DNA of 64,000 bases from Kiritimatiellia bacterium (lineage in GTDB: Bacteria; Verrucomicrobiota; Kiritimatiellia; RFP12; UBA1067). The DNA is taken from the NCBI GenBank assembly GCA_017450695.1, contig JAFSTA010000084.1, positions 34,474 to 98,473 of the forward strand, in the 5' to 3' direction. The position numbers and the translations under genes are program-made. Positions 3,040 through 62,187 of this stretch are shown one piece after another; the stretch's first letter is position 1; each line of letters begins with the position of its first letter. The notes beneath the pieces were generated by a model. That model searched no databases. It saw only the letters and a list, made by a program, of their open reading frames with translations, and was not told the DNA's origin.

Positions 3040-3148
3040 CCCGTCGCCCGCACTTACGCGGGAATGTAAATGAAGGTAAGTTTGTCTCACGCAAGGACCC
3101 CAGAACGAAACAAGGCAACAATCGGGGAAGCGACACTCTTGTCGCTTC
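3040..3148 (+). repeat. Intergenic repeat family R2, copy a (gggaatgNaaatgaNggtaa...tttgtctcNcgcaa...caatcggggaagcgacactcttgtcgcttc, ends in 9-bp-stem hairpin)
   Basis: Near-identical ~100 bp segment recurs at 13785..13895. Contains the perfect hairpin GAAGCGACA-ctct-TGTCGCTTC and a cccgc..gcggg hairpin. Confidence 0.7.
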
Positions 3149-13577: not shown

Positions 13578-13760
13578 TAGCTGATAGGCGTGTTATCTTT
13601 TGCTTGGAGACAACCGTAACAACGAATCAACAACAAACTGGTGGTCGTCGCGCAACCGCGCGACGGGTATCTATCATTCGGCTCACGGTTGCGAGCCGTC
13701 CCGATTCAAGGTTGTTCTCGATGTTGTTTCTCGATGTTGTTCCTGTTGTTTCCTTTCTAC
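13578..13760 (+). repeat. Intergenic repeat family R1, copy b
   Basis: Aligns with 8183..8340 over ~150 bp with scattered substitutions. Confidence 0.75.
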
Positions 13761-13784
13761 CTTAGCTGTTGGCTTGTTGCGGGT

Positions 13785-13895
13785 AGCTTGTTACCCCGCG
13801 TTGTGCGCGGGAATGAAAATGAGGGTAAATTTGTCTCGCGCAAAGGGAAACAAGTCTCCCAATCGGGGAAGCGACACTCTTGTCGCTTCTACCTA
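13785..13895 (+). repeat. Intergenic repeat family R2, copy b
   Basis: Aligns with 3040..3148, including the terminal gaagcgacactcttgtcgcttc hairpin. Confidence 0.7.
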
Positions 13896-14079
13896 GCAAC
13901 AGAGCAGTGCGAAGCGGCAGGAGTGCCGCTTCCCCGAATGTCTCGCGCCGGACTCGGAACTTATAGGCAGGCTGGTTGGGCGGTTTACGCATCTCAGTCG
14001 CGACACCCTCTCCCATACTAAAGATCACCGTCAAAAAAATATCTTGCACTCGCCTCGAAAATCCCCTATTGTAAACTCA

Positions 14080-17756: not shown

Positions 17757-19088
17757 ATGAACAGAACGATCCTGATCCCGACGTTCATGATGCTATTCAC
17801 CGCAACGGCGTTCTCCGTCCCCGGTGTCTCCGCTGTCGAGGTGTTTCCGCCCGACCCTGCGCTGGGCACGGTACGGGTTACCTACTCTCTCGCAAACCCG
17901 CCCGCCATTGTCACCGCCGAACTTTTCGAGAACGGCGTCGCACTGCCGGACGAGGCGCACACCTATCTCGACGGTGATGTCAACCGTTACGTCACCAACA
18001 CCGCCTGCTCCTTCACCTGGGATCCGCGTCACGCGTGGCCGGGACACAGGATGGACGGTACTCTCACGGTACGCGTCACGGCGCATACCTTAGCCGATCC
18101 GCCTCTCTATTGCGTGGTGGATCTCTCGCACGGTTCGGAAGGCGACGCATTCCCCCTGGAGTTCTACACCAGTTCCAACGCCGTGCCAGACGGCGTGACC
18201 GCCGAGTGTTACAAGCGGCAGAAACTCATCCTCCGCAAAATCCCACGCACGGGAGCGGATGGATTTCTGATGGGCGCCCCCGAGTTCGAGGGAAGCAGGG
18301 ACGCGATCCGCGAAAAACAGCATCGTGTGATTCTGACGCGAGATTTCTACATGGGCGTCTTCGAGGTGACACAAGAACAGTTCCGCCGCATCTGCGGCGA
18401 ACAAATCTTGGGCACGAGATTTCAGACGATACACACGGAAAACGCACCCGAAAACTACACCTCGATGAATCCCGTTCTGCCGATGGACACCAACAATTTC
18501 GCCATGATCCGCGGTTCGGTCGCCGACGGAATCGACTGGCCAGCGACCGGATACACGGTCAAGGAAAATTCTTTTATGGATATCCTGCGTCGCAAGACGG
18601 GCAATCTTCTGTTGTTCGACCTGCCGACTGACGCCCAGTGGGAATACGCGGCTCGCGCAGGTAACATGGGATCCTACCCTTCGGGTGACCTATGGATGTA
18701 CACGCAGGCGAACGGGGAATCCTGGAACGACGTGATTGAAAGGGGCAACTCGAACTACGTGGGGAAAATCGGCGCGTTTGTCAATTTTCAAGGATCCCAC
18801 ATCGGGTATCCCCTGCCCGTCGGATCGTTGCGTCCGAACGCATGGGGACTCTACGATGTCTGCGGCAACATCTACGAGCGTGTGCTAGACTGGGTGGATC
18901 GGCAAAACAGTCTGACGAATGCGGTGGATCCCGTCGGAACCGACGCGGAACATGTTTACCGCGTCTTCCGTGGAGGATCCTACAATTACAGTCTCGCCGA
19001 TATCCGCCTTCCCCGCCGTTCCGCCGAATCGCCCGACCGTTGCACCGGCTATATCGGATTTCGTATCGCCGCGACCATCGTTGAATGA
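17757..19088 (+). CDS. Secreted FGE-sulfatase-fold (SUMF1/PF03781) domain protein, paralog 1, with N-terminal ~130 aa beta-rich domain
   Basis: Signal peptide. FGE-fold motifs RTGADGFLMGAPEFEGSRDAIREKQHRVILTRDFYMGVFEVTQEQF, LPTDAQWEYAARAG, NAWGLYDVCGNIYERVLDW, RVFRGGSYNY, GFRIA. Only one Cys where active FGE has the CxxxxC pair. Confidence 0.75.
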   Translation: MNRTILIPTFMMLFTATAFSVPGVSAVEVFPPDPALGTVRVTYSLANPPAIVTAELFENGVALPDEAHTYLDGDVNRYVTNTACSFTWDPRHAWPGHRMDGTLTVRVTAHTLADPPLYCVVDLSHGSEGDAFPLEFYTSSNAVPDGVTAECYKRQKLILRKIPRTGADGFLMGAPEFEGSRDAIREKQHRVILTRDFYMGVFEVTQEQFRRICGEQILGTRFQTIHTENAPENYTSMNPVLPMDTNNFAMIRGSVADGIDWPATGYTVKENSFMDILRRKTGNLLLFDLPTDAQWEYAARAGNMGSYPSGDLWMYTQANGESWNDVIERGNSNYVGKIGAFVNFQGSHIGYPLPVGSLRPNAWGLYDVCGNIYERVLDWVDRQNSLTNAVDPVGTDAEHVYRVFRGGSYNYSLADIRLPRRSAESPDRCTGYIGFRIAATIVE

Positions 19089-19100
19089 GGAGAACGTGAC

Positions 19101-20402
19101 ATGAAAAAATGTGAAATCATCTTCCTTTGCCTCTGCGTAACCAGTCTTCTTGCCAACACGCCTTCGATTGAAACCGTGGAGCTTTCTCTCTCCGCCCGTC
19201 CCGGCGAAGTGGTCGTCAACTACACGCTCGCCAACCCGCCAGCCATCATCACGGCCGCGTTTACGGCAAACGGCGAACGACTCCCCGACACCGCGAGCTG
19301 GTACATGTTGGGTGATGTCAACACGATCGTCACCAATTCCTCCGGTTCGTTCACCTGGAATTATCGGAACACGGTCACGAACCTGGAGACACCCAACCTC
19401 TCCGTCACGCTCACGGCGTGGACACTTGAGGCACCTCCGTTATACTGCTGCATCGATCTTTCCGAGGGACCGAACGCAACGGCCTATCCGTTGGAGTTCT
19501 ACACCAGTTCCAACGCCGTACCGGGAGGTGTCCCCTCCGACACGTACAAAACGGGCAAGATGCTTTTCCGGCGAATTCCGCGTAGCAGCGACGACGGGTT
19601 CACGATGGGATCGCCCGCCAGCGAATCGGGACGCAACGCCGCACGAGAGGCCCAGCGCAACGTGGTACTGACACACGACTTCTACCTGTCCGTCTATGAA
19701 TGTACGCAAGAGCAATGGCAGCGCATCACGGGAAGTTACGGGTTTTCCCACCTTGTGGATGAGATCTCCACCTGGCCGTTCTCTCCGCGGCGTCCGGCGG
19801 AGAATGTGAGCGTCGTCAACATTCGGGGATCTCGCGGCGAGGGCGTCAACTGGCCATCCACAACCAACCATGTCGCATCCGGATCCGTTGCGGGAAAGCT
19901 ACGCGCACGAACCGGCAACATCTACCTTTGGGACCTGCCGACAGAGGCGCAGTGGGAGTACGCCTGCCGCGCCGGCACGACGGGCAGCAGTTACGACGCC
20001 ACGCTTTCCCTCTCCGAAATGGCGGTGTACGGCAGGAATCAGGGCCTCGACAAACCTCCGTCCGTCGATGGCACCCAGATCGTCGGCACCAAGGTTCCCA
20101 ACGCATGGGGACTCTACGACATGCTTGGTAACGTAATGGAATGGTGTAACGACTGGCGTCAGGAAGACACCTCCAACCTACCCCGCGTCAACCCCGTCGG
20201 TCCCAACGAGTTCACGGACGCACAAGGAGTCTATTACCGCATCGCGCGCGGCGGTGGACACAATTACAGCAGCGGTTCCGTGCGTCCCGCGCACCGGAAC
20301 TCTTGGGATGACACCAAATGTAATCAGGCATGGGGATTCCGCTTCTCCGCGACGCTCGGTGCGCACTGGGACACCTCCACCACGCCCCCCACTCTCTACT
20401 AA
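19101..20402 (+). CDS. Secreted FGE-sulfatase-fold domain protein, paralog 2
   Basis: Same architecture as 17757..19088 (VVNYTLANPPAIITAAF N-domain; NAWGLYDMLGNVMEWCNDW; RIARGGGHNY; GFRFSATL). Starts 12 nt after paralog 1. Confidence 0.75.
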   Translation: MKKCEIIFLCLCVTSLLANTPSIETVELSLSARPGEVVVNYTLANPPAIITAAFTANGERLPDTASWYMLGDVNTIVTNSSGSFTWNYRNTVTNLETPNLSVTLTAWTLEAPPLYCCIDLSEGPNATAYPLEFYTSSNAVPGGVPSDTYKTGKMLFRRIPRSSDDGFTMGSPASESGRNAAREAQRNVVLTHDFYLSVYECTQEQWQRITGSYGFSHLVDEISTWPFSPRRPAENVSVVNIRGSRGEGVNWPSTTNHVASGSVAGKLRARTGNIYLWDLPTEAQWEYACRAGTTGSSYDATLSLSEMAVYGRNQGLDKPPSVDGTQIVGTKVPNAWGLYDMLGNVMEWCNDWRQEDTSNLPRVNPVGPNEFTDAQGVYYRIARGGGHNYSSGSVRPAHRNSWDDTKCNQAWGFRFSATLGAHWDTSTTPPTLY

Positions 20403-20413
20403 GGACCTCCGAC

Positions 20414-21655
20414 ATGAAACACCCGATGATGATTTTCCTCTGTGCGGTAACCTTCTCCGCGTCCGCACTTGATTTACCCGAAATCCTCGATGTTTCCCTC
20501 GGGCACAAACTTCCCGCTTCCCGATCGCTGGTGGTGGACTACACCCTGACGAACGGCCCGGCCATCGTCACAGCCACCTTCTTTACCAACAACATCCCTT
20601 TGCCGGACAACGTTGTCACCTCGCTCACCGGAGACATCTGCCGGATCGTGACGAACGGCGCATGCCGTTTCGTCTGGGACGCGCCGACGGACTGGCCCGG
20701 GCATCAAGGTATCCTCCCGCTGACGAAGGTAACGATTGCAGCGCACCCACTCTACTTTCCGCCGCGTTATTGTCATATCGACCTCTCTGGCGGAACAGGG
20801 GCAACCAGCTACCCGCTTTATTTCTACGAGTCCAGCAACGCCATTCCAGGCGGCGTCGAAAGCGACCGCTACAAAACGACGGATCTGCTGCTGCGCAAGA
20901 TCGACCGCACGGGATCGGGCGGCTTCCTGATGGGGTCGCCCCCGTGGGAGTCCAACCGCAACTCCAGACGCGAACGCCAGCACACGGTTGTCCTGACGCA
21001 AGACTACTTCATGGGCGTCTATGAGGTGACCGTCGGGCAGTGGCAGCGCGTGATGGGAACCAGCGTACAGCCCAACCACACGGGCGACGAACGATACCCG
21101 ATGGAGAAAGTGACCTACGGCGAATGTCGCGGGGCGCGTTCGGAAAACATCGACTTCCCGACCACGGGCTTGCGCGTCTCACCCTCCTCCTTCGCGGGCG
21201 TCCTCAGGCAAAAGACGGGTAACATCTATCCCTTCGACCTGCCGACCGAAGCGCAGTGGGAGTATGCGGCACGCGCCGGTATCCTCGATTCTTTTTCCGA
21301 CGGTTCCACGATGGGCTGGCGATCCGCCACACAGCAGAGGGGAAAAGTGCATTTCAACACGAACTCGACAATCGTCGTCGGCAGTTACCTGCCCACGCAA
21401 TGGGGACTCTACGATGTACAGGGGAATGTGGTCGAATGGTGCCGCGACTGGCTGCTGGACGAGAACCTCCCCGACGCGACGGATCCGGTCGGTCCGTATG
21501 AACAGCAAACCTATCGCTCCGCGCGCGGCGGGCATTGGGATCACGCCATCTACGAGCTTCGCTTCGCGCGACGCAATGCGTGGAACGACACCTCGCGGTA
21601 TAGCACGTTCGGGTTCCGTCTCAGCGCCACCATCATCCCCATCCCGTCCGAATAA
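20414..21655 (+). CDS. Secreted FGE-sulfatase-fold domain protein, paralog 3 (no Cys in the catalytic-loop position)
   Basis: Signal peptide MKHPMMIFLCAVTFSASA. LVVDYTLTNGPAIVTATFF N-domain. TQWGLYDVQGNVVEWCRDW; RSARGGHWDH; GFRLSATI. Starts 11 nt after paralog 2's stop; an upstream in-frame ATG at 20330 overlaps paralog 2 and is unlikely to be the start. Confidence 0.7.
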   Translation: MKHPMMIFLCAVTFSASALDLPEILDVSLGHKLPASRSLVVDYTLTNGPAIVTATFFTNNIPLPDNVVTSLTGDICRIVTNGACRFVWDAPTDWPGHQGILPLTKVTIAAHPLYFPPRYCHIDLSGGTGATSYPLYFYESSNAIPGGVESDRYKTTDLLLRKIDRTGSGGFLMGSPPWESNRNSRRERQHTVVLTQDYFMGVYEVTVGQWQRVMGTSVQPNHTGDERYPMEKVTYGECRGARSENIDFPTTGLRVSPSSFAGVLRQKTGNIYPFDLPTEAQWEYAARAGILDSFSDGSTMGWRSATQQRGKVHFNTNSTIVVGSYLPTQWGLYDVQGNVVEWCRDWLLDENLPDATDPVGPYEQQTYRSARGGHWDHAIYELRFARRNAWNDTSRYSTFGFRLSATIIPIPSE

Positions 21656-21689: not shown

Positions 21690-22010
21690 TGCCCCCGAGA
21701 TTGGGAGGGGCAACGTCCTCGTTGCCCGAATTGGGAGGGTCGCGCCCCGTCGCGACCGCACTGCCCTTGCCTTCGCTGCGGGGAGTCTCGGAGTTGGGGA
21801 GGGTCGCGCCCCGTCGCGACCGCACTGCCCTTGCTTTCGCTGCGGGGAGTCTCGGAGTTTGGGAGGGGCGCGCCCCGTCGCGACCGCACTGCCCTTGCTT
21901 TCGCTGCGGGGAGTCTCGGAGTTTGGGAGGGTCGCGCCCCGTCGCGACCGCTACTGCCCTTGCTTTCGCTGCGGGGAGTCTCGGAGTTTGGGGCGCGCTC
22001 CGTCGCGACC
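21690..22010. repeat. Tandem repeat: ~4.5 copies of a 61-62 bp unit (tgggagggtcgcgccccgtcgcgaccgcactgcccttgctttcgctgcggggagtctcggagtt) with a leading GGGGCAACG..CGTTGCCC hairpin
   Basis: Units read directly and differ by 1-3 SNPs. Each contains the palindrome GTCGCG-cccc-gt-CGCGAC. Related copies (family R3) at 56917..57050. The ORFs listed on both strands here are repeat artefacts. Confidence 0.85.
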
Positions 22011-22102
22011 GCATTGCTTAACCACCTAACTACCACCTAACCAGCCCCCCCTCCCTCAACACCTCTCTTGCGGTCTGTGGTAAAATTCAGTATAATGCCG
22101 CC

Positions 22103-45420: not shown

Positions 45421-45799
45421 AAGTTGTGCTTGAAAAGACAACAGCTTCTGCTATGATAAGAGCGTTCTTTGGCGGTTGACCGCCGAGGAAAGACAAAATC
45501 CGGAAACTGACCGGGGTCGTCAAGCGACGTATGGAAGCCGACACCCCTCTCCACCTCCGGAGGTTAAGATTGTGGCATCAACGCTACATCGTCGTTCAGC
45601 AGAAATACGACCAATGTTTTTAATCCAGAACGACGTGTAAGTGATGATGCGTCCGTAAGGGCGCATTATCTTTATATGTATTCTGGATGGGCCTTTGGTC
45701 GGGCTTCTGCTGAGTGCATGAAAGGAAATGCGCTCTTTTTATGTATGTGACCAGGGGGGGTCCACGGCATTCGCAAGCGCACTATGCTGGAGGGGCGGG

Positions 45800-47871
45800 A
45801 TGGTTGCCGCCGGAATGGACATGGCGCAAAAAAGTTTGATCGGCGAACTGCCGAAGATTCTGGAAGAGGGTAAACGCGAGGCAGGAAGAATTCTGGAGCG
45901 ACTCTCGGACAACGTGAAAGTCGGACTTCAAACAAACGAGCTGGTACTCCCCGCGAAAGATGTGGACGGTCTCTTCAAGGGGCAGATGCCGACACTGGGT
46001 TCTTCGACAGGATTTACAGGATTAACAGGATTTGAGGCGGCCTCCCCTATGCCCGAAAATCCTGTCAAGAACAGTCCCTGGATCAACCGACTCATCTACG
46101 GAGACAACCTCCTCGTGATCCAGGCGTTGCTGGCGGGTGATGAAAAGACAAGTCTCCCTTCCTTGCGCGGCAAGGTCGATCTCGTCTATATCGATCCGCC
46201 CTTCGACTCCAAGGCCGACTACCGCACGAAAATCCACTTGCCCGGCACGGACATCTCGCAGAAACCGACTGTCATCGAGCAGTTCGCCTACTCCGACACG
46301 TGGAAGGACGGAACGGCAAGCTACCTCCGCATGATCTGCCCGCGCCTCATCCTCCTCCAGGAACTCCTCGCCGACACTGGATCCATCTACGTTCACCTCG
46401 ACTGGCACGTCGGCCACTACGTCAAAATCCTGATGGATGAGATTTTCGGGAAGGAGAATTTCAGGAACGAGATAGTGTGGTATTACAATAATAAAATGAG
46501 TGGTGCGGTTGTGAGTCATGATTTTGTATGTGAGCATGACACATTGTTTTTCTACTGCAAAACAAAGCAAAACCATTTTAATGAAATAAGGGAAGATAGG
46601 GATATACCAGTGAAACAAAGCAAGCGGGTGAAGATCGACGGGAAAAATATGAGGGCAAGAGATGCTGATGGAAACATGATATATGAAATCTCATTTGACA
46701 AGAAAGTCAAAGATGTTTGGACTATTCCATATATCGCATCAACCTCTAAAGAGCGTGTGGACTATACCACCCAGAAACCCGAGGCCTTGTTGGAGCGCAT
46801 CATCAAGGCATCATCGAACGAGGGAGATTTGGTGCTGGATGTCTTCGCGGGGAGCGGGACGACAGCGGCGGTGGCGGAACGGCTGGGGCGACGTTGGATT
46901 TCGGTGGATATCGGGAAGCCGTCGGCGTTGATCCAGCGAAAACGCTTCATCGACAATGAGGTGAAGCCATTCCTCTACCAGTCGGTCGGCGACTACCAGA
47001 AGGAGGCCTTCGGTGCATCGCGGCTGTTCCGTCGGATCGGCGACTTGTGTGAGGTCGTACTGAAACTCTACGGCGCGGAACCGTTTCCGGTGGAAAACTG
47101 CCCGACGCGCAACGCGGGGCAGATTCGCGAGTCGCGGACGCTCGTCCTGGTCGATAGCCCGAACAAACTCACGAATGCGGCAAGCGTGAAACGGGCGGCG
47201 GAAGCAAAGAACACGGCACTCGGCGGCGGCTGGTCGAAGGTGGTTCTCTTGGGCTGGAATTTCGCGTGGGACATTTCACAGGCAGCGCAGATGTACAAGG
47301 ACGTCGAGGTACTGGTGATTCCGCCAGATCTGATGGACGCGCTGAAAAAGCGCGGTTTTGCAGATCTCGCGGCAAACGGCAAGGTTCGTTTCTCCTCACT
47401 GCAGTATCTGTCGCTCAAGGATGTGCGGAGAGAGAGAGGATCGCATCTCACGCAGAGGCGCGGAGAGGTGGGGAATGCAAGGAAATTAACGGATTGGAGG
47501 TCTCGGCGGACTCTGCGCCTCAGCGTGAGGAAAATATGGAACGCATCATTGTCGAACTGGGCAACTACGTGCTGTTGTCACCGGACAACATTCCTTTAGA
47601 CGATAAGGACAAGGAGATCTTGGCGAAAATCGCGAAGGAAGACCCGCTGGCACTCATCGAATACTGGAGCGTCGATCCGGACTACAACGGCGAAACATTC
47701 CGCAGTCTCTGGCAGGACTACCGTGAGAACACGGGGAATGACGACGATCCCGACCATTGCGTATTCACGGCGGAGATTGTCGTGCCGAAAAAGCCGAAAG
47801 GTACTCGTGTCGTATGCGTAAAGGCTGTCGATGTCTTCGGCTTCGAGAGCGTGGCAACGGTGAGAGTGTAA
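45800..47871 (+). CDS. mod: Type III restriction-modification Mod subunit (beta-class N6-adenine/N4-cytosine DNA methyltransferase), frameshifted near 47427..47440
   Basis: Motif IV DPPF in [12 protein letters not shown]. AdoMet motif [15 protein letters not shown]. The reading frame switches from +2 (ORF 45728..47599) to +1 (ORF 47266..47871) at a (GA)5 run, ggAGAGAGAGAGga. The C-terminus continues in the other frame (..[20 protein letters not shown]). Central 46440..46760 is markedly AT-rich, a probable target-recognition domain. Confidence 0.7.
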
Positions 47872-47883
47872 GGAGAACTGGCA

Positions 47884-50830
47884 ATGGCGAAGAAAAGCAC
47901 GGCAATGAACACAGGACGGATTCCGTTGGAGTTCGCGAAACGAGTAAGCGAAGCAGCGGAGGCGGCATACGGAAACGGTTCGATGGCGCACGCGGTCTCA
48001 CCCGTCACGCGAGAACTGCTGAAATACTGGTTCGAGGAACCGTTCACGGATCGTCCGCTCAACTTCCACGAAGGACAGAAGCGGGCTATCCTGAACGCCA
48101 TCTACCTGCACGAGGTCATCGGCGCGGCGAACATGACGGATGCCTGGGCGAAAATCGGTCCAGAGCTACTGGAAACGGAGAACGGCGCGGTGATGGCGGA
48201 ACTCTCCAAAGACAAATACGCCTACCCGAAATACTGCGTGAAGATGGCAACGGGAACGGGGAAGACATGGGTAATGCATGCACTTCTGATCTGGCAGTAC
48301 CTGAACGCACGATATCCCGTCAAGGGGGCGGTGACGCCGTCCCCGTCGTTTGTGAAAAACTTCCTCTTCGTGGCACCGGGGCTGATCGTCTATGAGCGGC
48401 TGCTTGACGCCTTTTGCGGCAAGCGAATCGACGGCGGCGAGATGCGGGATTTCACGACGAGCGACATCAAAAGCTGCGAGTCACTTTTCGTGCCTCCGCA
48501 GTATCGTGATGCGCTGTACGCTTTCCTCCAAAACTCACTGGTACGCAAGGAGGATTTCGGTCGCAAAGTGACAGGTGACGGAACGTTGGCGGTCATGAAC
48601 TGGCATACGTTTCTGGGCGAGGAGGAAGGTTCGCCTTCCGAGGATTCGGGGGCGGAGTCCCCATCCGTTTGCACCGATGACGGCAAGGGAATTCTCGACG
48701 AGCTCCTTCCCGCGAAGCCGGGAATAGCGGCTGGTAACGCCCTGGAGTCGCTGGACGCCTCATTCCTGCGCGGCGGAAGACTTGATTTCCTAAAGGACTT
48801 GCCCGATCTGATGCTCGTAAACGACGAGGCGCACCATGTGCATGGAGGAACAAAAGACGAGGAAGAAGTCAAGTGGCAACAGGGAATCGACGCGTTGGCG
48901 AAAGGGAAACGGTTCATTCAGCTCGACTTCTCGGCGACACCATACGAACCATCCGGGAGCGGGCGCAACGCGCAACAAGCGCGAGGACTATTTTCCGCAC
49001 GTAATGGTCGATTACGACCTCCCCGCCGCAATCCGGGCGGGGCTTGTGAAGACCATCATCATCGACGAACGCAAGGAGTTGGCGAACGAGCTTGTCGATC
49101 TGGACTACAAAGCCGTCCGGGACGGGCGGCACGTAGTGGGACTGAGCGATGGACAACGGCTGATGTTACGGGCCGGGTTGGCAAAACTCCGGTATCTCGA
49201 AAAGGAGTTCGCATCGTTAGATGAAGCGAAGCGGCCGAAGATGATGGTGGTCTGCGAGGACACGGGCGTAACACCGCTCGTCTCCGATTTTCTGCGAGAG
49301 GAAGGACTTTCCGACGACGACATTCTGACGGTTGACAGTAACAGGCAGGGAGATGTCGGAGAGAAGGAATGGAACAAGATGAAGGGAAAACTCTTCGCGG
49401 TTGACAAGCGCGAAAAGCCACGCGTCATCATCTCCGTTCTCATGCTCCGTGAGGGATTCGATGTCAACAACATCTGCGTCATCGTGCCACTCCGAGCATC
49501 CAACGCGCAGATTCTGTTGGAGCAGACACTAGGACGCGGGCTACGCCTCATGTGGCGGGAACCGGAATACAGAGAAACCAAGGATAAGGCGAGGGATCAA
49601 TTAATCGTAGAAAAGGTCGAGCCTTGCGCGGTGTTAGACTTCCTTTACATCATCGAGCATCCGGCGTTCAAGGAATTCTACGACAATCTCGTTGCACAGG
49701 GACTCGTTGGAACGCAGAAAACGAAAGACAGAGACGGTGGCGGGAAAGACGACCTCGTTCATTCCGTCCTCAAGGAAGACTACGAGAATTGGGACATCTT
49801 TTGGCCGCTGGTGCGGAGAGAAAGCGAGGAAATCCTATCTGATGAAGCCCTTCCCCAAGAAGGCTTGGAACCTTTCACACTCTATCCGCTGTCGCGGTTA
49901 CGTGAAATCTTCGCGAGACCGGGCGAGGTATTCGTGGGGAAAGAACTACTTGTCCGGACGACATTCGGCGAGTACCGGGTTCATGCGAATCTCTTCAATG
50001 CCACATGCTACAACGAGTACATTCAAGGCATCGTCGATTCGATTTCTCGCCGATTCATGCGTATTGCAGGAAAGCAGACAAGTGCAATGCCCGCCTTGCA
50101 GATACACTTAGCAAAGATTGCCGCGGTGGTGGACAGGTTCATTCGGGAACGGCTGTTCAATGAGCCGTTCGACCCATTTAGCGGAAATGACTGGAAGATT
50201 CTCCTCTGTCGCAATGGAACCATCACCAACCATATCGTCAAGCAGGTGGGTGAACTGGTTTATTGGATTGAAAACAAAACGCTCAAGACTCAAGCAGATG
50301 TCGATCGACTTTGGTTCTCCAGCGTGCGCGACTTCGTCGTTCGGAAAGGTGCGTCGCTTGAACTGACGAAAACGATCTACACGCGCACCGGTTATCCGAC
50401 GAAGGGGGGCGGGCTGGAGAAGGATTTTATGGAGTTCATCGACCGCGACGGCGGAGTGGAGAGGTTCGTCAAAGTCAACGAGGCAAAACACATCTTCGCA
50501 CGGATTGCCTATCTTCGCACAGATGGACTGATGGGCGAGTACATTCCCGATTTCCTTGTCGTGACGGAAAAACACGTCTGGCTGGTGGAAACAAAGGCTG
50601 AAAAGGACAAGGATGATGGAAACGTGCAGGCAAAGCGAAACGCAACAGTACAGTGGTGCAAGGGTATCAATGCTCTGGAGAAAGAAGATCGAATGAACCG
50701 AACATGGAGTTATCTGCTTCTGACGGACAAGGATTTCTATGCCTATCAAGATGGAAATGCCACATTCCATGATTTGTGCAGGTTTTCTGAAGTCACGGAG
50801 TCGGGGTTAAAGGGCGAGTTTACGTTCTGA
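47884..50830 (+). CDS. res: Type III restriction-modification Res subunit (SF2 helicase/endonuclease), frameshifted near 48945..48985
   Basis: Walker A ATGTGKTWV, DEAH box LMLVNDEAHHV, motif III FSATP in frame +1 (ORF 47884..49224). The rest (KREDYFPHVMVDYDLPAAIRAGLVKT ... to 50830) is in frame +2 (ORF 48836..50830). Starts 10 nt after the mod stop. Confidence 0.7.
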
Positions 50831-51002
50831 TTCACGAAATCCACTTCCCCGTTGATGATCTAACTCTGTGATAATCTCGAAACCGCAGATTACAGAGTGC
50901 TTGGCGCTTCGCGCCAGCTGAAAAGCTGAGAAGCGAAAGGAGGGCAATAGGATTACCTCGCGTAAAGGCGTCGAGTCGCCCAATCGAGAAGAGAGAACGC
51001 GC

Positions 51003-51050
51003 GGATTAGGTCGATTTAAAGCCTCCGAAGGAGGCGATTTAACCATTTCA
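51003..51050. repeat. Intergenic repeat family R4 (gatttaaaGCCTCCgaaGGAGGCgattNaaccatttca), copy a
   Basis: Second copy at 57234..57282 with the same GCCTCC-gaa-GGAGGC hairpin. Confidence 0.7.
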
Positions 51051-51259
51051 CCTAAGTTCCTCAGTTGGACACTTTGAAATGAATCATGCTGCTTTGGATT
51101 TTTCAGACTTTCACCATTTGGATGAATCGTTTTTCTGTGTGTGCGGGGGGGCGAAAAGCCCTGTTTACGGTACTTTCTCTGTGTACTCTGCGCACTCAGC
51201 GGCTCTGCGTGAGAACCCAAACGAGGAATCGAGGTTTAATCCGTTCTTGTGCCAAGTCC

Positions 51260-53347
51260 TCATGCGTTCACGCTTGTTCCGAAGAGAAGCAAGCCGAGTG
51301 AGGAGACGGTCGCTTCTTTCGCGATGGCGTCGGGTTCCCTCCCCGCCTTTCGCAATGCGGTCGCTGTCGGGTTTCCGAGAACGACAACCTTCTTTCCGGT
51401 CAACCGATCCGCCCCGAATTGGTTCAGGAAGGATTCGACTGCCGAAGCGCTTGCGAAAAATACGGCATCGAATCTCGGCAGGTTGTCATACCGAACCTCT
51501 TCGTTGCGATAGAGGATGCAGTCGGTAACGGTTGCGCCTCGTTCACGCAGTGCGCCCGCCACGCTCTCCCCCGCCTTCTCGGAACGGAAACGTAAAATCC
51601 GCTGTCCGTTCCAATAGCCGTCTGACAATGTGGCGATGAGTCCTTCCGCGCTAAAGGATTCCTTCGGCATCCAGTCGGCGTGCAAGCCCGCCGTTTCCAG
51701 TTCCGACGCGCATCCGGGACCACAAACTATCAATTTCGGAACCTGGCGCAGATCGAACGATTCGGATCGCAACAGTTCCAGAAAGATCCGTACCGCGCTT
51801 GGGGAAGTGAGCACAACCCAGTCGTACGAATCCAGCGAACGGATCTCCTCACGCGCACGGGATTCGGCCCGGAGACGGATCAACGGACGCGCAAGCGGGA
51901 CGCCTCCCAGATCGCGTACCGAAAGTTCGGCTTTGGGCAGAATGGATTCGCTACAGGTCAACAGCACGCGCATCCCGTCCAGACCACCCGCTGCGCTTCG
52001 ATATCCGCCCGCGGCTGGAGAACCGATCAGGATCAGTCCCGGAGCCTCTTCCCCTTCACTCGGATGCAAGGTAGCCAAAGTTCCGCGAACGATTTTCTCC
52101 TCCTCGCCGCCTGCCTGATACACGATGGCGGCAGGTGTCTCCGGTGACCACCCCTCACCGATCAGACGACGCGCGACGTCCTCCGCGAGCTTGACGGACA
52201 TGAAGAGAACGAGCGGGAAACGACTCCGTTCCTCGATCCCGACATCCGCATTCCCGCCCCCTTCCGCACGAGGCGTCATCACGGTGAACCCGCGTGACTC
52301 GCCGCGTTTGGTCAAGAGCATCCCCGTGCCGGTCGTGGCCGCAACCAGCGCGCTGACACCGGGAAGCACACGATACGGGATCTGTAATTCATCGAGCCTG
52401 CCGATCTCTTCGGACAAACGCCCGAAGAGGCCGGGATCGCCGCCCTTCAACCGAACGACGCGAAGCCCCTGCCGCGCGTACTCCGCGATCAGCTCCGTAA
52501 TCTCGGACTGCGGCATCGAATGTCCCCCGCAACGCTTCCCCACAAAGACTGCCTGTGCCTGCGGCGGCAACTCGCGCAACAACCGTTCGTCCATCAGCTG
52601 GTCGTACAGGCAGACATCCGCCTGACGCAGCTCTTTCAGTCCGTCCCATGTGATCAGTCCGGCGGAACCGACCCCCGCGCCAACGAAACGAACCGCCTTG
52701 ACGAAGCAAGAACGAAGCCGCATCCATTCCGGGTTCCCTTTGCGGAAGGTGACTGCCAACCGGCCTTGCGCCAGAGGCGTCGGCAACCGGTCAAGCGGAA
52801 TCCATTCTGTGATGCGCTCGGAAAGCCCCAGTCGTTTCAGTGCGGCGCCCGCCATAATCACGACATCGAAATCCCCCGCGTCGAGTTGTGCAATCCGAGA
52901 AGGAATGCTGCCGCGAATGGGACGGATCACGGCATCGGGGAACTCGGAATTGACGTATGCTTCCCGGCGGTCGCTGCTAACGCCGATGACCGGGCGCGAC
53001 AACGAGGCGCGGGATTCCCCGGAACGCAGCACAAGGCAATCGCGCGCGTCCTCGTACCAAGGGAGCCAGAACCAATCAAGCCGCGGATTCGGCAACGGGT
53101 AGGAAAGGTCCTTCGCGCTGTGGACGGCAAGGTCGATCATACCTGATAAAACCGCCTCGTCCAAATCACGCGAAAAGAAATCGGCCGGGGCGGTACGGAG
53201 ACTGCTCGCCAAATCACGGTCCCCCGGCGAAGAGAACGGGATCGTTTGGAAAGAGAGGAACGGAAAGAGACCGATGATGCGGTTCAAGGCATCTTGCGTC
53301 TGCGCCAGAGACAACGCGCTTCCGCGCGTGCCGACTTTCCACTGCAT
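51260..53347 (-). CDS. Tetrapyrrole triple fusion: HemC-like (hydroxymethylbilane synthase domains 1-2 only) + uroporphyrinogen-III C-methyltransferase (CobA/SUMT) + uroporphyrinogen-III synthase (HemD)
   Basis: N-terminal WKVGTRGSALSLAQT...AVHSAKDL...VIMAGAALKRLGL...PLAQGRLAV (HemC domains 1-2; the domain-3 cofactor Cys region is absent). Middle VRFVGAGVGSAGLITWDGL...VVRLKGGDPGLFGR...LPGVSA (SUMT). C-terminal DWVVLTSPSAVR...AVFFASASAVE (HemD). Confidence 0.75.
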   Translation of the reverse strand: MQWKVGTRGSALSLAQTQDALNRIIGLFPFLSFQTIPFSSPGDRDLASSLRTAPADFFSRDLDEAVLSGMIDLAVHSAKDLSYPLPNPRLDWFWLPWYEDARDCLVLRSGESRASLSRPVIGVSSDRREAYVNSEFPDAVIRPIRGSIPSRIAQLDAGDFDVVIMAGAALKRLGLSERITEWIPLDRLPTPLAQGRLAVTFRKGNPEWMRLRSCFVKAVRFVGAGVGSAGLITWDGLKELRQADVCLYDQLMDERLLRELPPQAQAVFVGKRCGGHSMPQSEITELIAEYARQGLRVVRLKGGDPGLFGRLSEEIGRLDELQIPYRVLPGVSALVAATTGTGMLLTKRGESRGFTVMTPRAEGGGNADVGIEERSRFPLVLFMSVKLAEDVARRLIGEGWSPETPAAIVYQAGGEEEKIVRGTLATLHPSEGEEAPGLILIGSPAAGGYRSAAGGLDGMRVLLTCSESILPKAELSVRDLGGVPLARPLIRLRAESRAREEIRSLDSYDWVVLTSPSAVRIFLELLRSESFDLRQVPKLIVCGPGCASELETAGLHADWMPKESFSAEGLIATLSDGYWNGQRILRFRSEKAGESVAGALRERGATVTDCILYRNEEVRYDNLPRFDAVFFASASAVESFLNQFGADRLTGKKVVVLGNPTATALRKAGREPDAIAKEATVSSLGLLLFGTSVNA

Positions 53348-53454: not shown

Positions 53455-53664
53455 CTACGCCATCTCGCGCATCAGACGACGGGAGCGATTGCGGATACGG
53501 GCACGCGCGGACTTCTTGCGCGCCTTTTCGCACGGCTTCTCGTAGTAGCGGTTGTTCCGCAACTGCTTGAGCAGCCCTTCCTTATCCATGATTTTCTTCA
53601 GACGCTTGAGCGCGCGCTCAACCGTCTCACCCTTCTTCAACCGGATCTGGATCACGTCATTCAC
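53455..53664 (-). CDS. rpsU: 30S ribosomal protein S21
   Basis: 69 aa, MNDVIQIRLKKGETVERALKRLKKIMDKEGLLKQLRNNRYYEKPCEKARKKSARA, a close match to the bS21 consensus. Confidence 0.9.
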   Translation of the reverse strand: MNDVIQIRLKKGETVERALKRLKKIMDKEGLLKQLRNNRYYEKPCEKARKKSARARIRNRSRRLMREMA

Positions 53665-53837
53665 CCCCTTTCAGTCACAAAGTGAAAAGTTAGTATAGAG
53701 AAAATACAGCCTGGAGTCAACCCGAATTTTTTTGAATTTTCGCACGGATTCCCATGCTTTCTCCTTTGATTTCGTGATTGTCTATGCTAAAATAACCCTG
53801 TTGTTCGGTAGTGTATCCATCAGCAAAGGAGGTTGCC

Positions 53838-54311
53838 ATGCCCGAGACCGCCAACAAGATTTTATTCTGTACAGATTTTTCGCAAAATGCGCTTCAGTCG
53901 TTTTCCTATGCGATTCGCGCCACTAAGGAGATTCCCGACGCGCAGCTGGTTCTCTTCCACACGATGCCGGAACCAGACGCGCAATTCTGGAAAGGGTACA
54001 TCTTGGATTCGGATGACGCCATGACGGAGATGAAGCAAAAGATCCACGAGAAGATCGATGCGGAGTATCGCCCGCTCCTGCCACCAGACTGCCCGATGGA
54101 AGTCGTGCTGACCACCGGCGACGCACCGGAGGAGATTCTGCATTACGCGAACCGGGAGAATGTCCGGATGATCGTACTCGGCAGACAAGGGAGCGGCATG
54201 ATCTCCCAATGGCTGATGGGGAATGTCACAGCCCGCGTCGTCCGCAAGGCGAACTGCCCCGTCCTCGTCGTCCCCTTCTCCTTCATCGAAAAACAGAAGC
54301 AGGCCAAATGA
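53838..54311 (+). CDS. Universal stress protein (UspA family)
   Basis: ILFCTDFSQNA...LVLFHTM and C-terminal MIVLGRQGSGMISQWLMGNVTARVVRKANCPVLVVP (Usp ATP-binding tail). AGGAGG RBS upstream. Stop overlaps the next start (ATGA). Confidence 0.75.
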   Translation: MPETANKILFCTDFSQNALQSFSYAIRATKEIPDAQLVLFHTMPEPDAQFWKGYILDSDDAMTEMKQKIHEKIDAEYRPLLPPDCPMEVVLTTGDAPEEILHYANRENVRMIVLGRQGSGMISQWLMGNVTARVVRKANCPVLVVPFSFIEKQKQAK

Positions 54312-55501
54312 TCGGAATCTCGAAGCTTTATCTAGGTACCGTCGAAGTATCCGACCCGTTGCGGTACGGACGTGCGTCCGGCAAACTTCCGAGTCACCTG
54401 CTCCAGTTCTCGAAGGACAAGAAACCTGTCGTCGTGTGGAATGTCACTTCGCGCTGCAACCTGAAATGCGAACACTGTTACGCCGCAGTCCCGAAAGTCC
54501 AGCCGGAGTTGACCGCCGAACAGGCGTTTGCGGTTTTGGACGATCTCGCCGGGTTCGGAGTTCCTGTTGTGTTGTTCTCCGGTGGCGAGCCATTCACCCG
54601 TCCCGATATCCTCGACCTCGCCCGTTATGCGGCCTCGAAGAAGTTACGCGTCGTGTTCTCGACCAACGGGACGCTGATCACGCGCGAAGTCGCGGAGGAA
54701 ATCCAGAAGATCGGCGTTTCGTATGTCGGCATCAGCATCGACGGCGGGCAAGCGGTTCACGACCGTTTCCGTCGCATGGAAGGAGCCTTCCAAGCCGCGC
54801 TCAACGGGATCCGGAACTGCCGCGACGCAGGAATCAAGATCGGTCTCCGCGTCACGATCACTCGTGACAACGTGCAGGAAATCCCGGCGGTGTTCGACCT
54901 CATGGAAACGGAGAAGGTGCCGCGCCTCTGCCTCTATCACCTTGTCTATTGCGGACGCGGCGCGGAAATCGCCGACCATGACCTCACGCCTGAAGAACGT
55001 CGCGCCACGGTGGATCTCATCATCGACCGGACAAAACGCCTGCACGACCTCGGATTCCAGACCGAAGTGTTGACAGTCGATAACCATTGCGACGGTCCCT
55101 ATCTCTATCTGCGGATGTTGCGCGAGGCAAACCCGCGCGCCGGCGATGTATTGTCGCTCCTCCAGATGAACGGCGGCAACAGCACGGGACTCGGGATCGG
55201 CTGCATCAGCTGGGACGGAACCGTCTATCCCGACCAGTTCTGGCGCAACAAACCGCAGGGCAACGTGCTGGAGAAACCATTCAGTGAAATCTGGGGAAAA
55301 CCGCCGGAGGATTCCCTCCTCTGGCAGTTGCGCCACCGGAAGGAACGGATCACCGGACGTTGCGCGAACTGCCGCTTCCATTCCGTCTGCAACGGCAATT
55401 TCCGCGCACGTGCGGAAGCCGCCACGGGTGACATCTGGGCAAGTGACCCGACATGCTATCTAACGGATGAAGAAATCCGAGAACAAGCAACAACCATGTA
55501 A
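54308..55501 (+). CDS. Radical SAM / SPASM-domain enzyme of the NirJ/AhbC/AhbD (heme d1 / alternative heme biosynthesis) family
   Basis: CX3CX2C cluster VVWNVTSRCNLKCEHCY, FSGGEP, STNGTLI, SPASM-like GIGCISWDGTVYPDQFW and CANCRFHSVCNGNFRARAEA, C-terminal DPTCYL. This set matches my recollection of NirJ/Ahb-type proteins rather than anSME. Confidence 0.6.
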   Translation: MIGISKLYLGTVEVSDPLRYGRASGKLPSHLLQFSKDKKPVVVWNVTSRCNLKCEHCYAAVPKVQPELTAEQAFAVLDDLAGFGVPVVLFSGGEPFTRPDILDLARYAASKKLRVVFSTNGTLITREVAEEIQKIGVSYVGISIDGGQAVHDRFRRMEGAFQAALNGIRNCRDAGIKIGLRVTITRDNVQEIPAVFDLMETEKVPRLCLYHLVYCGRGAEIADHDLTPEERRATVDLIIDRTKRLHDLGFQTEVLTVDNHCDGPYLYLRMLREANPRAGDVLSLLQMNGGNSTGLGIGCISWDGTVYPDQFWRNKPQGNVLEKPFSEIWGKPPEDSLLWQLRHRKERITGRCANCRFHSVCNGNFRARAEAATGDIWASDPTCYLTDEEIREQATTM

Positions 55502-55515
55502 CAGGAGACAACACG

Positions 55516-56598
55516 ATGACACAAGACAGAATCCGTGGATCCTTGATCGGCGGGGCGATCGGGGACGCACTCGGATATTCCGTGGAATTCGACTCACTCG
55601 GTTCCATCCGGTCCAAGTACGGCGAACGCGGCATCACGCGTCTGGATACGACATACTCCCTGCATTCGGGCGCGAACGGCAAGGCGGTGATTTCCGATGA
55701 CACGCAGATGACTCTCTTCACCGCGTGCGGTCTGCTCAACGCCAAACGACAGGACCTCCCGTTTCTGGAAGCGATCAAGCAAGCCTATCTGGAATGGTTC
55801 GAAACGCAAACAAGCCGGAATACAAGCCATCAACCGGAATGCTGGATCCGCGATGTGCCCGAACTAAACCACCACCGCGCCCCCGGTTTGACCTGTATGT
55901 CCGCCCTCCGCGAAATCGCACAAGGTGCCCCGCACGGCAACAACGACAGTAAGGGGTGCGGCGGCGTCATGCGTATTGCCCCCATTCCTCTTTTCGCCGT
56001 TCCAGAACGCCGCATGGACATTTTGGAGTCAGACCGCTTGGCCGGAGATGCCGCCGCCCTCACGCACCGCCATCCCCTTGGGTACCTCTCGGCGGCGATG
56101 GCCGCGCATGTCATCTATCTGCTCGTCCAGGAATCCTCCCCGACACGCCAGACGCTGGAGGACGCGATCGCCGATGCGAATCTGGCAATGCGTACTCTCT
56201 ACCCGAAACAAGCCCGTTACGTGGAAACACTGGAAGGCCTCTCCAAGCAGGCGGTCGCTCTCGCGGCAAACGCCGCCCCCGACATCGAGAACATCAACGT
56301 GCTGGGCGAAGGCTGGGTCGGCGAGGAAACGCTGGTAATCGCACTGTATTGCTCACTCCGTCATTTTGACAGTTTCGAGAATGCGATGATCGCCTCCGTG
56401 AATCATGGAGGAGACAGCGACAGCACCGGCGCCGTTGCGGGGAACATCCTGGGCGCCGCACTCGGATACCAAGCCATCCCCTCCTTCTACACGGATGATG
56501 TCGAGTTGCACGATCTGATTCTTCAGATGGCCGACGACCTCTATACCGGCACAATCTCCGGCAACGGAAAAACGGGGAGTGGTGTAGCCAGCAGCTAG
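55516..56598 (+). CDS. ADP-ribosylglycohydrolase family protein (DraG/ARH-like)
   Basis: N-terminal RIRGSLIGGAIGDALGYSVEF (ADP-ribosylglycohydrolase signature). Later GDSDSTGAVAGNILGAALG (metal-binding motif). 14 nt after the radical SAM gene. Confidence 0.8.
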   Translation: MTQDRIRGSLIGGAIGDALGYSVEFDSLGSIRSKYGERGITRLDTTYSLHSGANGKAVISDDTQMTLFTACGLLNAKRQDLPFLEAIKQAYLEWFETQTSRNTSHQPECWIRDVPELNHHRAPGLTCMSALREIAQGAPHGNNDSKGCGGVMRIAPIPLFAVPERRMDILESDRLAGDAAALTHRHPLGYLSAAMAAHVIYLLVQESSPTRQTLEDAIADANLAMRTLYPKQARYVETLEGLSKQAVALAANAAPDIENINVLGEGWVGEETLVIALYCSLRHFDSFENAMIASVNHGGDSDSTGAVAGNILGAALGYQAIPSFYTDDVELHDLILQMADDLYTGTISGNGKTGSGVASS

Positions 56599-56747
56599 GA
56601 TACGCACGATCCACCGTACGAAGCGGCACCGGGACTCGTCTCATATCCCGCATGTCGCTTGTCCTTTGCCTCACACGGAGGCGCGAAGAATGGGAGGGGC
56701 AACGTCCTCGTTCCCCGAATTGGGATGGTCACGTTCGCCTCTCCTCC

Positions 56748-56845
56748 TTGAATCGGGACGGTTCGCAACCGCGAACCGGATAAGAACCGTCGCGCGGTTA
56801 CGCGACAACCGCCAGCGTGTTGTTGTCGTTGTTGTCCTTGCCTAT
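56748..56845 (-). repeat. Intergenic repeat family R1, reverse-orientation copy c, embedded in a ~700 bp repeat-dense region (56660..57470) that also holds R3 and R4 units and gaagcggcactcctgccgcttc hairpins
   Basis: cttgaatcgggacggttcgcaaccgcgaaccg...accgtcgcgcggttacgcgacaacc...cttgcctatcag is the reverse complement of the R1 consensus. Confidence 0.7.
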
Positions 56846-56916
56846 CAGTTCCGAGCAAACCGTTCGGGGAAGCGGCACTCCTGCCGCTTCACGGAGGTGT
56901 AATTGTCTTTTGTCTC

Positions 56917-57050
56917 ACGCGGAAAATGGGGAGGGTCCCGCCCCGTCGCGACCGCGTAGGCAGAGCGGATATTGCTTTCGCTATGGGGAGTCTCGGAGTT
57001 TTGGAGATAGGGTGTCGCGAAGAACGGGAGGGTCGCGCCCCGTCGCGACC
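56917..57050. repeat. Repeat family R3 (gggagggtcNcgccccgtcgcgaccgc ... ctttcgctNNggggagtctcggagtt), two units
   Basis: Shares the 27 bp core and the gggagtctcggagtt tail with the tandem array at 21690..22010. Confidence 0.7.
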
Positions 57051-57233
57051 GCGTAGGCAGGGCAGGAAGGATTAGGAAACAACAGGGACAACATCGAGAA
57101 CAACTTCAATCGAGACGGCTCGCAACATTCCAAATTCCGAGTTCTGGGTGATCCGTTCGGGAAAGCGGGGAAAGTTAAATCGCTTCGCTTTGAAATGGTT
57201 ACATGGTTAAATGGACGAGCCGCCGAAAACGGG

Positions 57234-57282
57234 GCGGATCAGGCTGATTTAAAGCCTCCGAAGGAGGCGATTGAACCATTTC
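57234..57282. repeat. Intergenic repeat family R4, copy b
   Basis: ctgatttaaagcctccgaaggaggcgattgaaccatttca, matches 51003..51050. Confidence 0.7.
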
Positions 57283-57557
57283 ATCTTTTAACCATCCAAA
57301 GCCGCGCCGCGTCAGGCTTTCGTGGTCGCGCCCAGCGCCCTATTCCGTGTGTTCCGTATATTCCGTGGTTTTGTCCAACAGAGGAATCCAGGTTCAAGGA
57401 AGGGATGGGGAAACAACGGGACAACATCAAGAACAACTTGAATCGGGACGGCACCAGCATAACTCGCTTCCCTACGCATCTCGTTCAAGATTGACGCGGC
57501 TGGCGAAAACCGATAGACTAAAGTTCGCATTTTGAAACTGTACCTGAACCAGAAAGG

Positions 57558-61467: not shown

Positions 61468-62187
61468 TCAGACAGATCTCTTCGCATAGCGGAAGGATGC
61501 CTTGCCCCAGTTCAGCAACTTTTCCGTAACGGCCTGGGTGTAGGCGGCACGACGATTCTGGTAGTCCAGATAATAGGCGTGCTCCCAGACATCGACACAC
61601 AGCAACGGCGTCACGCCTTTCTCCGTCAAAGGGGTGTCCGCATTGGAGGTTGATTCAATCACCAGTTTATTGTCGCGCACCAGCAGCCAAGCCCAACCGC
61701 AACCGAACCGCTTGTTCGCCGACTCGGCCAAGAGCCGCGCGCAATTTTCCACGCTTCCAAACGTCTTCGACAACACCTCGCCCAACGCCTTCGACGGCTT
61801 GCCACCGCTTCCGGCCGGCGCCAGTGAATCCCAGTAGAACGTGTGGTTCCAGATCTGCGCGGCGTTGTTGAAGAAGGGGGCCGCATTGTCGGCCTTGGAA
61901 GCCACAATGATTTCCTCCAGCGTCATACCCGCGTATTTCGATCCCGGCAACATCGCATTCAACGCGGCGACATAACCGGTATGGTGCTTGCCATAGTGAA
62001 AACCGATCGTTTCCGCTGAAATGATCGGCGCGAGCGAATTCTCGGCAAAAGGAAGTTTCGGCAACAAGATGATACGGTTCGCCGGTTTCGGCGCCGTCTC
62101 CTGCTTCGTCGCATCAGCACCAACCACGCTCGCAGCTGCCGCCACGGTCGCCGTCTCGATAAAGTTCCGTCTTGAGATTGTATCCAT
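61468..62187 (-). CDS. Fe/Mn-family superoxide dismutase with twin-arginine signal peptide (periplasmic)
   Basis: Tat motif SRRNFIETATVAAAASVVGA. SOD motifs LPKLPFAENSLAPIISAETIGFHYGKHH and DVWEHAYYLDYQNRRAAY. Start set at MDTIS (62187); the upstream ATG at 62283 is less likely. Confidence 0.85.
   Translation of the reverse strand: MDTISRRNFIETATVAAAASVVGADATKQETAPKPANRIILLPKLPFAENSLAPIISAETIGFHYGKHHTGYVAALNAMLPGSKYAGMTLEEIIVASKADNAAPFFNNAAQIWNHTFYWDSLAPAGSGGKPSKALGEVLSKTFGSVENCARLLAESANKRFGCGWAWLLVRDNKLVIESTSNADTPLTEKGVTPLLCVDVWEHAYYLDYQNRRAAYTQAVTEKLLNWGKASFRYAKRSV

Follow-up and report, generated by a model that had tools for sequence, protein, structure and literature searches.

Why should a radical S-adenosylmethionine (SAM) enzyme with tetrapyrrole-type motifs be packed between the genes for a universal stress protein (Usp) and an ADP-ribosylglycohydrolase-family (ARH) protein, and does this packing bear on what the enzyme does? 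The question arises in a 64-kb stretch of DNA (the window, meaning the whole stretch analysed) from an uncultured Kiritimatiellae bacterium, of ruminant-gut origin to judge from contig names (XIEF21-1...), which fit a MAG (metagenome-assembled genome) study of the ruminant gastrointestinal tract. Here usp, the radical SAM/SPASM gene ahbC and the ARH gene follow one another on the plus strand (Table 1). On sequence evidence this central gene is clearly orthologous to AhbC, and we consider it likely that it acts as AhbC in the siroheme-dependent heme pathway, with the packing of usp and the ARH gene around it reflecting gene-order drift.

Among NCBIfam models, the AhbC model TIGR04546 matched the radical SAM protein best, with 623 bits in a colinear alignment over model positions 2–390 of 390. 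NirJ1 (491 bits), a haloarchaeal pseudo-SAM family (402), NirJ (TIGR04051; 390) and AhbD (232) scored lower, peptide-maturase SPASM and PqqE/MftC-type models reached at most 157 bits, and anSME was outside the top 25 families. An initial annotation of this DNA had called the protein a NirJ/Ahb-type radical SAM enzyme and suggested comparing AhbD/NirJ with anSME profiles; that comparison upholds the call and narrows it to AhbC specifically, as opposed to anSME or a peptide maturase. A homologue scan with one genome per species listed at least 547 AhbC relatives. The closest among the matches listed were 72–76% identical and came from Kiritimatiellia, Lentisphaeraceae and other metagenome-assembled genomes (MAGs) of the Planctomycetes–Verrucomicrobia–Chlamydiae (PVC) group. 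Identity to the Desulfobacterota, Methanoperedens and Methanosarcina orthologues was 60–65% (60–62% for the Methanosarcina/Methanoperedens lineage), and the demonstration of AhbC activity comes from Methanosarcina (PMC3942049). In a neighbor-joining tree, the window AhbC nests in a PVC AhbC clade, with a sister group that has AhbD adjacent. In NCBI the identical protein is entered as "MAG: radical SAM protein [Kiritimatiellae bacterium]"; homologues at 72–79% identity carry the JGI name "12,18-didecarboxysiroheme deacetylase".

The residues expected of an AhbC are in place. Its N-terminal cluster motif reads C50-NLK-C54-EH-C57, within VWNVTSRCNLKCEHC, inside a PF04055 match spanning residues 45–198 (E=3e-31), and the C-terminal motif belongs to the auxiliary-cluster pattern CX2CX5CX20–21C common to NirJ, AhbC and AhbD (PMC10114771). 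The protein ends in SDPTCYL and carries the N-terminal extension MIGISKLY...LRYG, so that the N-terminal Cys cluster, the C-terminal SPASM-type Cys cluster and the DPxCYL tail on which the initial annotation had relied are all present. From 44 AhbCs that have an AhbD-like gene next to them we took the 152 columns that are at least 97% invariant, and 150 of these are retained in the window protein, the exceptions being V178I and L358H. The Protein Data Bank (PDB) contains no structure of AhbC or NirJ; its closest matches, SkfB and PqqE, cover no more than the radical SAM core.

From what is known of the family, the [4Fe-4S] cluster held by Cys50, Cys54 and Cys57 would reductively cleave SAM to yield a 5'-deoxyadenosyl radical, and the auxiliary cluster at Cys352, Cys355, Cys361 and Cys383 would serve electron transfer. 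The radical reaction of AhbC would then take the two ring A/B acetate side chains off didecarboxysiroheme, giving coproheme (Fe-coproporphyrin III). Upstream of this step, the HemC'-CobA-HemD fusion protein encoded nearby would make precorrin-2, the branch-point precursor of siroheme, and the siroheme decarboxylase AhbA/B and the coproheme decarboxylase AhbD would be encoded elsewhere in the genome, as in Methanosarcina. The sequences themselves show how the genes are built, to which family the enzyme belongs, which residues it keeps, that selection is purifying and how the neighbours are distributed; we infer the enzymatic activity, the co-transcription of the genes and the rest of the pathway.

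The fusion gene starts 490 bp upstream of usp, ~960 bp from the ahbC start, and is the sole other tetrapyrrole gene found in the window; its product is also matched by the NCBIfam models for uroporphyrinogen-III C-methyltransferase, HemC and HemD. To place it, we compared the neighbourhoods within 10 kb on either side of AhbC in 80 species of wider relatives, using tblastn and profile searches. In 14 of the 80, HemC/CobA/HemD genes lay no more than 10 kb from AhbC. A Verrucomicrobia MAG (L027) has AhbC, AhbD and an AhbAB fusion in a row and, 3 kb away, a HemC-CobA-HemD fusion that shares 49% identity with that of the window, and a Kiritimatiellota locus (L060) has HemC, CobA-HemD, AhbC, AhbD and AhbAB, then ORFs that we read, from their N-terminal sequences only, as HemL and SirC. 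Clusters mixing early hem genes with nir-like genes have been described (PMC3942049). Because of the 14 loci and the L027 and L060 clusters, the fusion is the only neighbour that is widely found linked to AhbC. The initial annotation had taken this gene, ~1 kb away, as heme-pathway context, and the recurrence of the linkage across phyla bears that out; of the alternative heme or heme-d1-like pathway that it proposed, the heme route is favoured and heme d1 disfavoured, with NirJ at 390 against AhbC at 623 bits. Our literature search returned nothing specific on heme biosynthesis in Kiritimatiellae.

The HemC part of the fusion is itself unusual. It matches PF01379 only, over residues 4–207, with no match to the C-terminal porphobilinogen deaminase domain family. 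In canonical HemC, the dipyrromethane-cofactor cysteine sits in the C-terminal domain. The second HemC match of the fusion, to PRK01066 (a 241-position HemC model), is below the cut-off.

What stands beside AhbC elsewhere differs from the window. In 45 of 62 informative loci an AhbD-like paralogue (30–35% identical) lies at most 6 kb downstream, and in the PVC sister clade L007–L012 it starts 57–139 nt after AhbC, which is the position of the ARH gene in the window. For the paralogue at L008, AhbD was the only model at E ≤ 1e-100, with 346 bits, below the cut-off of 500. Neither Usp nor ARH was found within 10 kb of AhbC in any of the 80 relatives. Among closer relatives, L087 (GCA_017544725.1; AhbC 93.9% identical) has the order Usp–AhbC–ARH, with Usp 96.8% and ARH 76.6% identical; L095 and L097/L098 (GCA_017962315.1; AhbC 80–81%) have DctM–Usp–AhbC with a 3-nt Usp–AhbC gap, Usp at 59%, unrelated genes downstream and no ARH; and L099 (AhbC 78%) has AhbC alone. 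The tree runs ((window, L087), (L095, L097)), then L099, then the AhbD-adjacent clade L007–L012. Usp stands beside AhbC only in a narrow Kiritimatiellae clade, at 80% AhbC identity or more, and ARH only in two sister species. The association of usp and the ARH gene with ahbC does not reach far back in evolution, and drift of gene order explains it best.

Within its narrow range the trio is stable. The same order, usp–ahbC–ARH, was found on eight independently assembled metagenome contigs carrying the identical protein, and again in the second species, L087. Between the window and L087 (Nei–Gojobori), synonymous divergence (dS) was 0.69 for Usp, 1.09 for AhbC and 0.97 for ARH, and the ratio of nonsynonymous to synonymous divergence (dN/dS) was 0.024, 0.033 and 0.149, respectively. 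The similar dS across the trio argues that the three genes were co-inherited; all are under purifying selection, ARH being less constrained. A separate evolutionary history for the ARH gene, whose product is 77% identical between the species against 94–97% for its neighbours, was considered and rejected, as dS is the same across the three genes. Positions 7–1791 of L087 align with window positions 53696–55479 in a single 1787-nt alignment at 84.5% identity that takes in the rpsU–usp spacer. Because the upstream 143 nt of L087 align with that spacer, L087 likewise has no upstream dctM.

The Usp has a conserved home of another kind. It belongs to PF00582 (92.6 bits against a cut-off of 24), has a near-canonical ATP-binding motif, G-x2-G-x9-G-N (GRQGSGMISQWLMGN), and finds its best PDB relatives in MJ0577, PH0823 and TeaD, the TeaD match being weak (E=5.5e-6). 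The subfamily is small, with 262 database proteins at E ≤ 1e-10, and all named ones are from Kiritimatiellae/Kiritimatiellia or Verrucomicrobiota. Homologues at 46–55% identity lie directly after dctM, the gene for the membrane component of a tripartite ATP-independent periplasmic (TRAP) transporter, in six of six further contexts, none of them with AhbC: the order is DctP–DctQ–DctM–Usp in L100, L102, L103, L104/105 and L106/107, and DctM–Usp–NfeD–Band7 in L108. In Halomonas elongata, the Usp TeaD of the teaABCD operon modulates the TRAP transporter TeaABC. The window usp is not downstream of dctM; its upstream neighbour is the divergent rpsU. It is probably a TeaD-like TRAP-transporter accessory gene left stranded beside ahbC. 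Some of the TRAP operons in relatives look degraded, with DctP missing and DctQ at 69 aa in L101 and DctM split in L108, and DctM stands without upstream DctP/DctQ in L095 and L097; Usp is intact in all of these.

For the ARH protein, the family match is strong (PF03747, 224 bits) and the motifs of the metal site, GDALG, DDT and GGDSDSTG, are preserved in the alignment to DraG (2woc). Equivalog models fall far short, DraG TIGR02662 giving 79.8 bits where the cut-off is 337 and Tri1 58 where it is 490, and the protein is only distantly related to DraG, ARH1/3, Tri1 and MJ1187. Its own family is very large: thousands of members are ~60% identical to it, and one of these is named Prevotella sp. 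Homologues at 60% identity lie one gene upstream of relA/spoT in two distinct contexts. The ARH gene of the window is probably a lineage-specific arrival, in the position that AhbD holds in sister lineages. The homologues near relA/spoT (L089–L094) are surrounded by islands of variable content, among it NUDIX/NrtR, a PARG-LRR protein, NADAR, RtcB, DUF1810 and PP2C, which suggests a stress or conflict neighbourhood related to NAD or ADP-ribose in other gut bacteria. PADLOC placed neither Usp nor ARH in any defence system and gave the AhbC radical SAM core a generic viperin-like match only.

Several findings weigh against the reading of ahbC as a working AhbC with neighbours gathered by drift. 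Its TIGR04546 score falls 27 bits short of 650, the curated cut-off for an equivalog. A tblastn search of the window with PVC queries for AhbD, AhbAB, SirC and HemL matched nothing but AhbC itself. The usp–ahbC pairing outlasted rearrangement on both flanks, at 80% AhbC and 59% Usp identity, and its persistence, whether overlapping or 3-nt-spaced, is some evidence of selection on the pairing. The ARH gene, too, has been kept at its ahbC-adjacent position under purifying selection since the species split (dS ~1).

The first two of these findings would fit an orphaned or repurposed AhbC, in a clade that has lost AhbD and perhaps AhbA/B and whose pathway stops at coproheme, follows a hybrid route (for example through ChdC) or works on a scavenged or different tetrapyrrole; the window, L087, L095, L097 and L099 are all without the adjacent AhbD-like gene of the sister clade. 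We regard this as unlikely. PVC orthologues score 614–629 bits with TIGR04546, even L008, which is directly beside its AhbD-like gene, so the shortfall is a lineage effect; the Kiritimatiellota locus L060, with its full ahb cluster, scores 700 and the Methanosarcina orthologue 774. The near-invariant residues kept and the dN/dS of AhbC argue for unchanged chemistry. Separation of ahbC from ahbD is normal in Methanosarcinales: in M. barkeri the gene number of the validated AhbC, Mbar_A1793, is far from those of ahbD (Mbar_A1458) and ahbAB (Mbar_A1459/1460) (PMC3942049), and the 17 loci with no downstream AhbD-like gene include Methanosarcina, Methanoperedens and bacterial ones. The view taken here is, moreover, of 64 kb of the genome.

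The persistence of the pairing and of ARH would fit a functional module, in which Usp, through ATP sensing, or ARH, or both, control AhbC or heme synthesis post-translationally, much as DraT and DraG control nitrogenase. The operon-like spacing, the co-inheritance of a trio under purifying selection in two species, the survival of usp–ahbC between rearranged flanks and the intact ARH metal site all speak for it; we judge it distinctly improbable. No ARH stands beside AhbC in the closest Usp–AhbC relatives or in the 80 wider ones, the Usp subfamily is elsewhere a TRAP-operon gene, and the conserved context of the ARH homologues is unrelated. Pfam searches found no ADP-ribosyltransferase that could act as a writer, no DraT and no nif gene in the 64-kb window, and the DraG score is far under its cut-off. 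The proposal that Usp and ARH form a module with the enzyme was therefore not sustained, given shallow adjacency, other conserved homes (dctM; relA/spoT) and no transferase in the window, and a DraG-like switch was rejected as the leading explanation because no transferase is in the window and ARH adjacency is not conserved. The fallback offered by the initial annotation, an unrelated stress module, fits better. We retain functional coupling at low weight because usp–ahbC survived rearrangements and ARH was kept over a dS of ~1.

A NirJ-type heme d1 enzyme, which would remove propionate from didecarboxysiroheme, is highly improbable. NirJ is a close AhbC homologue acting on the same substrate, and both its models match, yet the AhbC model is ahead by 130–230 bits and the NirJ score is below that model's own cut-off of 515. 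The protein is, in addition, 60–65% identical to the AhbC of methanogens and sulfate reducers, Pfam searches found no nirS-, nirF- or nirN-like genes in the window, and the sister clade pairs its orthologue with an AhbD-like heme b synthase. An anSME or other SPASM peptide or protein maturase without a tetrapyrrole role, which has the generic radical SAM and SPASM architecture in its favour and no adjoining precursor-peptide or sulfatase gene, merits almost no credence at 157 bits or less against 623; both of these alternatives are effectively excluded.

The packing itself is as first described, three co-directional genes with an ATGA overlap and a 14-nt gap, in the open reading frame (ORF) listing and by direct reading. 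A strong Shine-Dalgarno sequence, AAAGGAGG, stands 7 nt 5' of the usp ATG; the ahbC ATG overlaps the usp TGA (−4 nt), and ahbC ends with TAA. The spacer to the ARH gene, CAGGAGACAACACG, contains AGGAG. The 157-aa usp product was also called independently on metagenome contigs, and Pfam returned Usp (E=4e-26), Radical_SAM with Fer4_12 and SPASM, and ADP_ribosyl_GH (E=4e-66) for the three products. Gaps of −4 and +14 nt between genes of the same strand are typically operon-like, and a scan found no convincing terminator inside the trio, so co-transcription is plausible; usp and the ARH gene are probably transcribed together with ahbC. The promoter candidate upstream of usp is weak, with 9 of 12 consensus matches, and the consensus scan found three sites where 1.4 were expected. 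A weak terminator-like hairpin at 56885–56899 is the only one seen 3' of the ARH gene. Rfam gave no matches at gathering thresholds in the window, including no riboswitch 5' of usp, and a tRNA scan of the window found none. After the ARH gene, tight packing gives way to a spacer that is a mosaic of short repeats recurring in the window's other intergenic regions (families D2, D3, D8, D11 and D13; inverted pairs I1 and I3–I5).

Table 1. Coordinates of the usp–ahbC–ARH trio and adjoining features in the window
Feature	Position	Strand	Description	Model
HemC'(domains 1–2)-CobA-HemD fusion	51260–53347	−	695 aa, divergent	PF01379 + PF00590 + PF02602
rpsU (S21)	53455–53664	−	between the HemC'-CobA-HemD gene and usp	
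sigma-70-like promoter candidate	53766–53793	+	TTGATT-16-TAAAAT, TG extension; in the 173-bp rpsU–usp intergenic region	
usp	53838–54311	+	157-aa universal stress protein, MJ0577/TeaD type	PF00582
ahbC	54308–55501	+	397 aa, radical SAM/SPASM; 12,18-didecarboxysiroheme deacetylase (Fe-coproporphyrin III synthase) orthologue by sequence	TIGR04546
radical SAM [4Fe-4S] motif CX3CX2C codons	54455–54478	+	Cys50, Cys54, Cys57	
auxiliary-cluster motif CX2CX5CX21C codons	55361–55456	+	Cys352, Cys355, Cys361, Cys383; SPASM region	
ADP-ribosylglycohydrolase-family (ARH) gene	55516–56598	+	360 aa	PF03747
non-coding spacer	56599–57557	.	959 bp, repeat-rich	

The repeats belong to a short intergenic family seen at 21726–22030 and 56687–57286, and also at 3119–3290, 13610–13954 and 51001–51053. 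A 64-nt unit with the hairpin GGTCGCG-CCCCGT-CGCGACC occurs four times in tandem at 21726–22030, with copies at 56922–57063, and several other repeats of 30–55 nt are common to intergenic regions in both orientations, with no Rfam match; together they suggest an element family resembling repetitive extragenic palindromic (REP) sequences or miniature inverted-repeat transposable elements (MITEs). Elsewhere in the window, a type III-like restriction-modification pair (45728–50830, plus strand) combines an intact N6/N4 DNA methylase (45728–47599) with a ResIII-family restriction subunit split into overlapping ORFs (47884–49224 and 48836–50830); the split is probably a real frameshift or pseudogene, as gene calls on the independent assembly L001 also break the subunit up. 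Three tandem paralogues with FGE-sulfatase (sulfatase-modifying-factor-like) domains occupy 17757–21655 on the plus strand at ~1.3 kb spacing, and the middle copy (~19100–20330) has no clean long ORF and may be disrupted. A Fe/Mn superoxide dismutase gene (61468–62187, minus strand) encodes an N-terminal extension, MDTISRRNFIETATVAAAASVVGA, that resembles a twin-arginine signal, so that the product looks like an exported superoxide dismutase in a presumed gut anaerobe.

The clear orthologues of AhbC at this locus and in its relatives, from MAGs that bear the labels Kiritimatiellota, Lentisphaeraceae, Verrucomicrobia and Planctomycetaceae and with ruminant-gut Kiritimatiellae among them, lie outside the textbook domain of "archaea and sulfate reducers", to which reviews assign the siroheme-dependent heme route as a trait. 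They bear on whether these uncultured anaerobes of the gut synthesise heme themselves or rely on others for it. The point is incremental, as annotation pipelines in use already give close homologues the right name. The locus also carries a caution: operon-like packing, ATGA overlap included, here joins three genes with different conserved contexts elsewhere, and adjacency in one genome should not be taken to imply a functional module. That the locus reveals something new, be it post-translational control of anaerobic heme synthesis through a coupled Usp and ARH or a truncated or hybrid pathway with no AhbD, seems to us rather unlikely. Control of that kind, if real, would work by sensing ATP or stress and by an ADP-ribosyl mark put reversibly on AhbC or a partner; a Usp once tied to a TRAP transporter would be translationally coupled to ahbC in this clade, and in two species the ARH gene would be co-transcribed as well.

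Set against known systems, the window protein is closest to AhbC as represented by TIGR04546, M. barkeri Mbar_A1793 and the Desulfovibrio AhbC, which it matches over its full length and colinearly, with both cluster motifs, the DP.CYL tail, the MIGISKLY...LRYG extension and a gene linked to early tetrapyrrole genes. It differs in that its host is a Kiritimatiellae (PVC) gut bacterium and not an archaeon or sulfate reducer, that the gene has usp and ARH as flanks with no adjacent AhbD/AhbAB, and that its score is below the model cut-off. With NirJ and the NirJ1/NirJ2 models it shares the superfamily, the predicted didecarboxysiroheme substrate and the two-cluster architecture, whereas its scores for NirJ and NirJ1 (390–491) are lower than for AhbC and denitrification or d1 context is absent. 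The ARH protein has the fold family and conserved di-metal site motifs of DraG, ARH1, ARH3 and Tri1 (PF03747), but is distant from them, has no DraT-like or other transferase near and belongs with homologues in a relA/spoT context. The Usp is, like TeaD, a small single-domain protein of ATP-binding type whose homologues come last after dctP–dctQ–dctM, as teaD does after teaABC; unlike teaD, the window gene has no TRAP genes beside it and overlaps ahbC instead, and its similarity to TeaD itself is weak.

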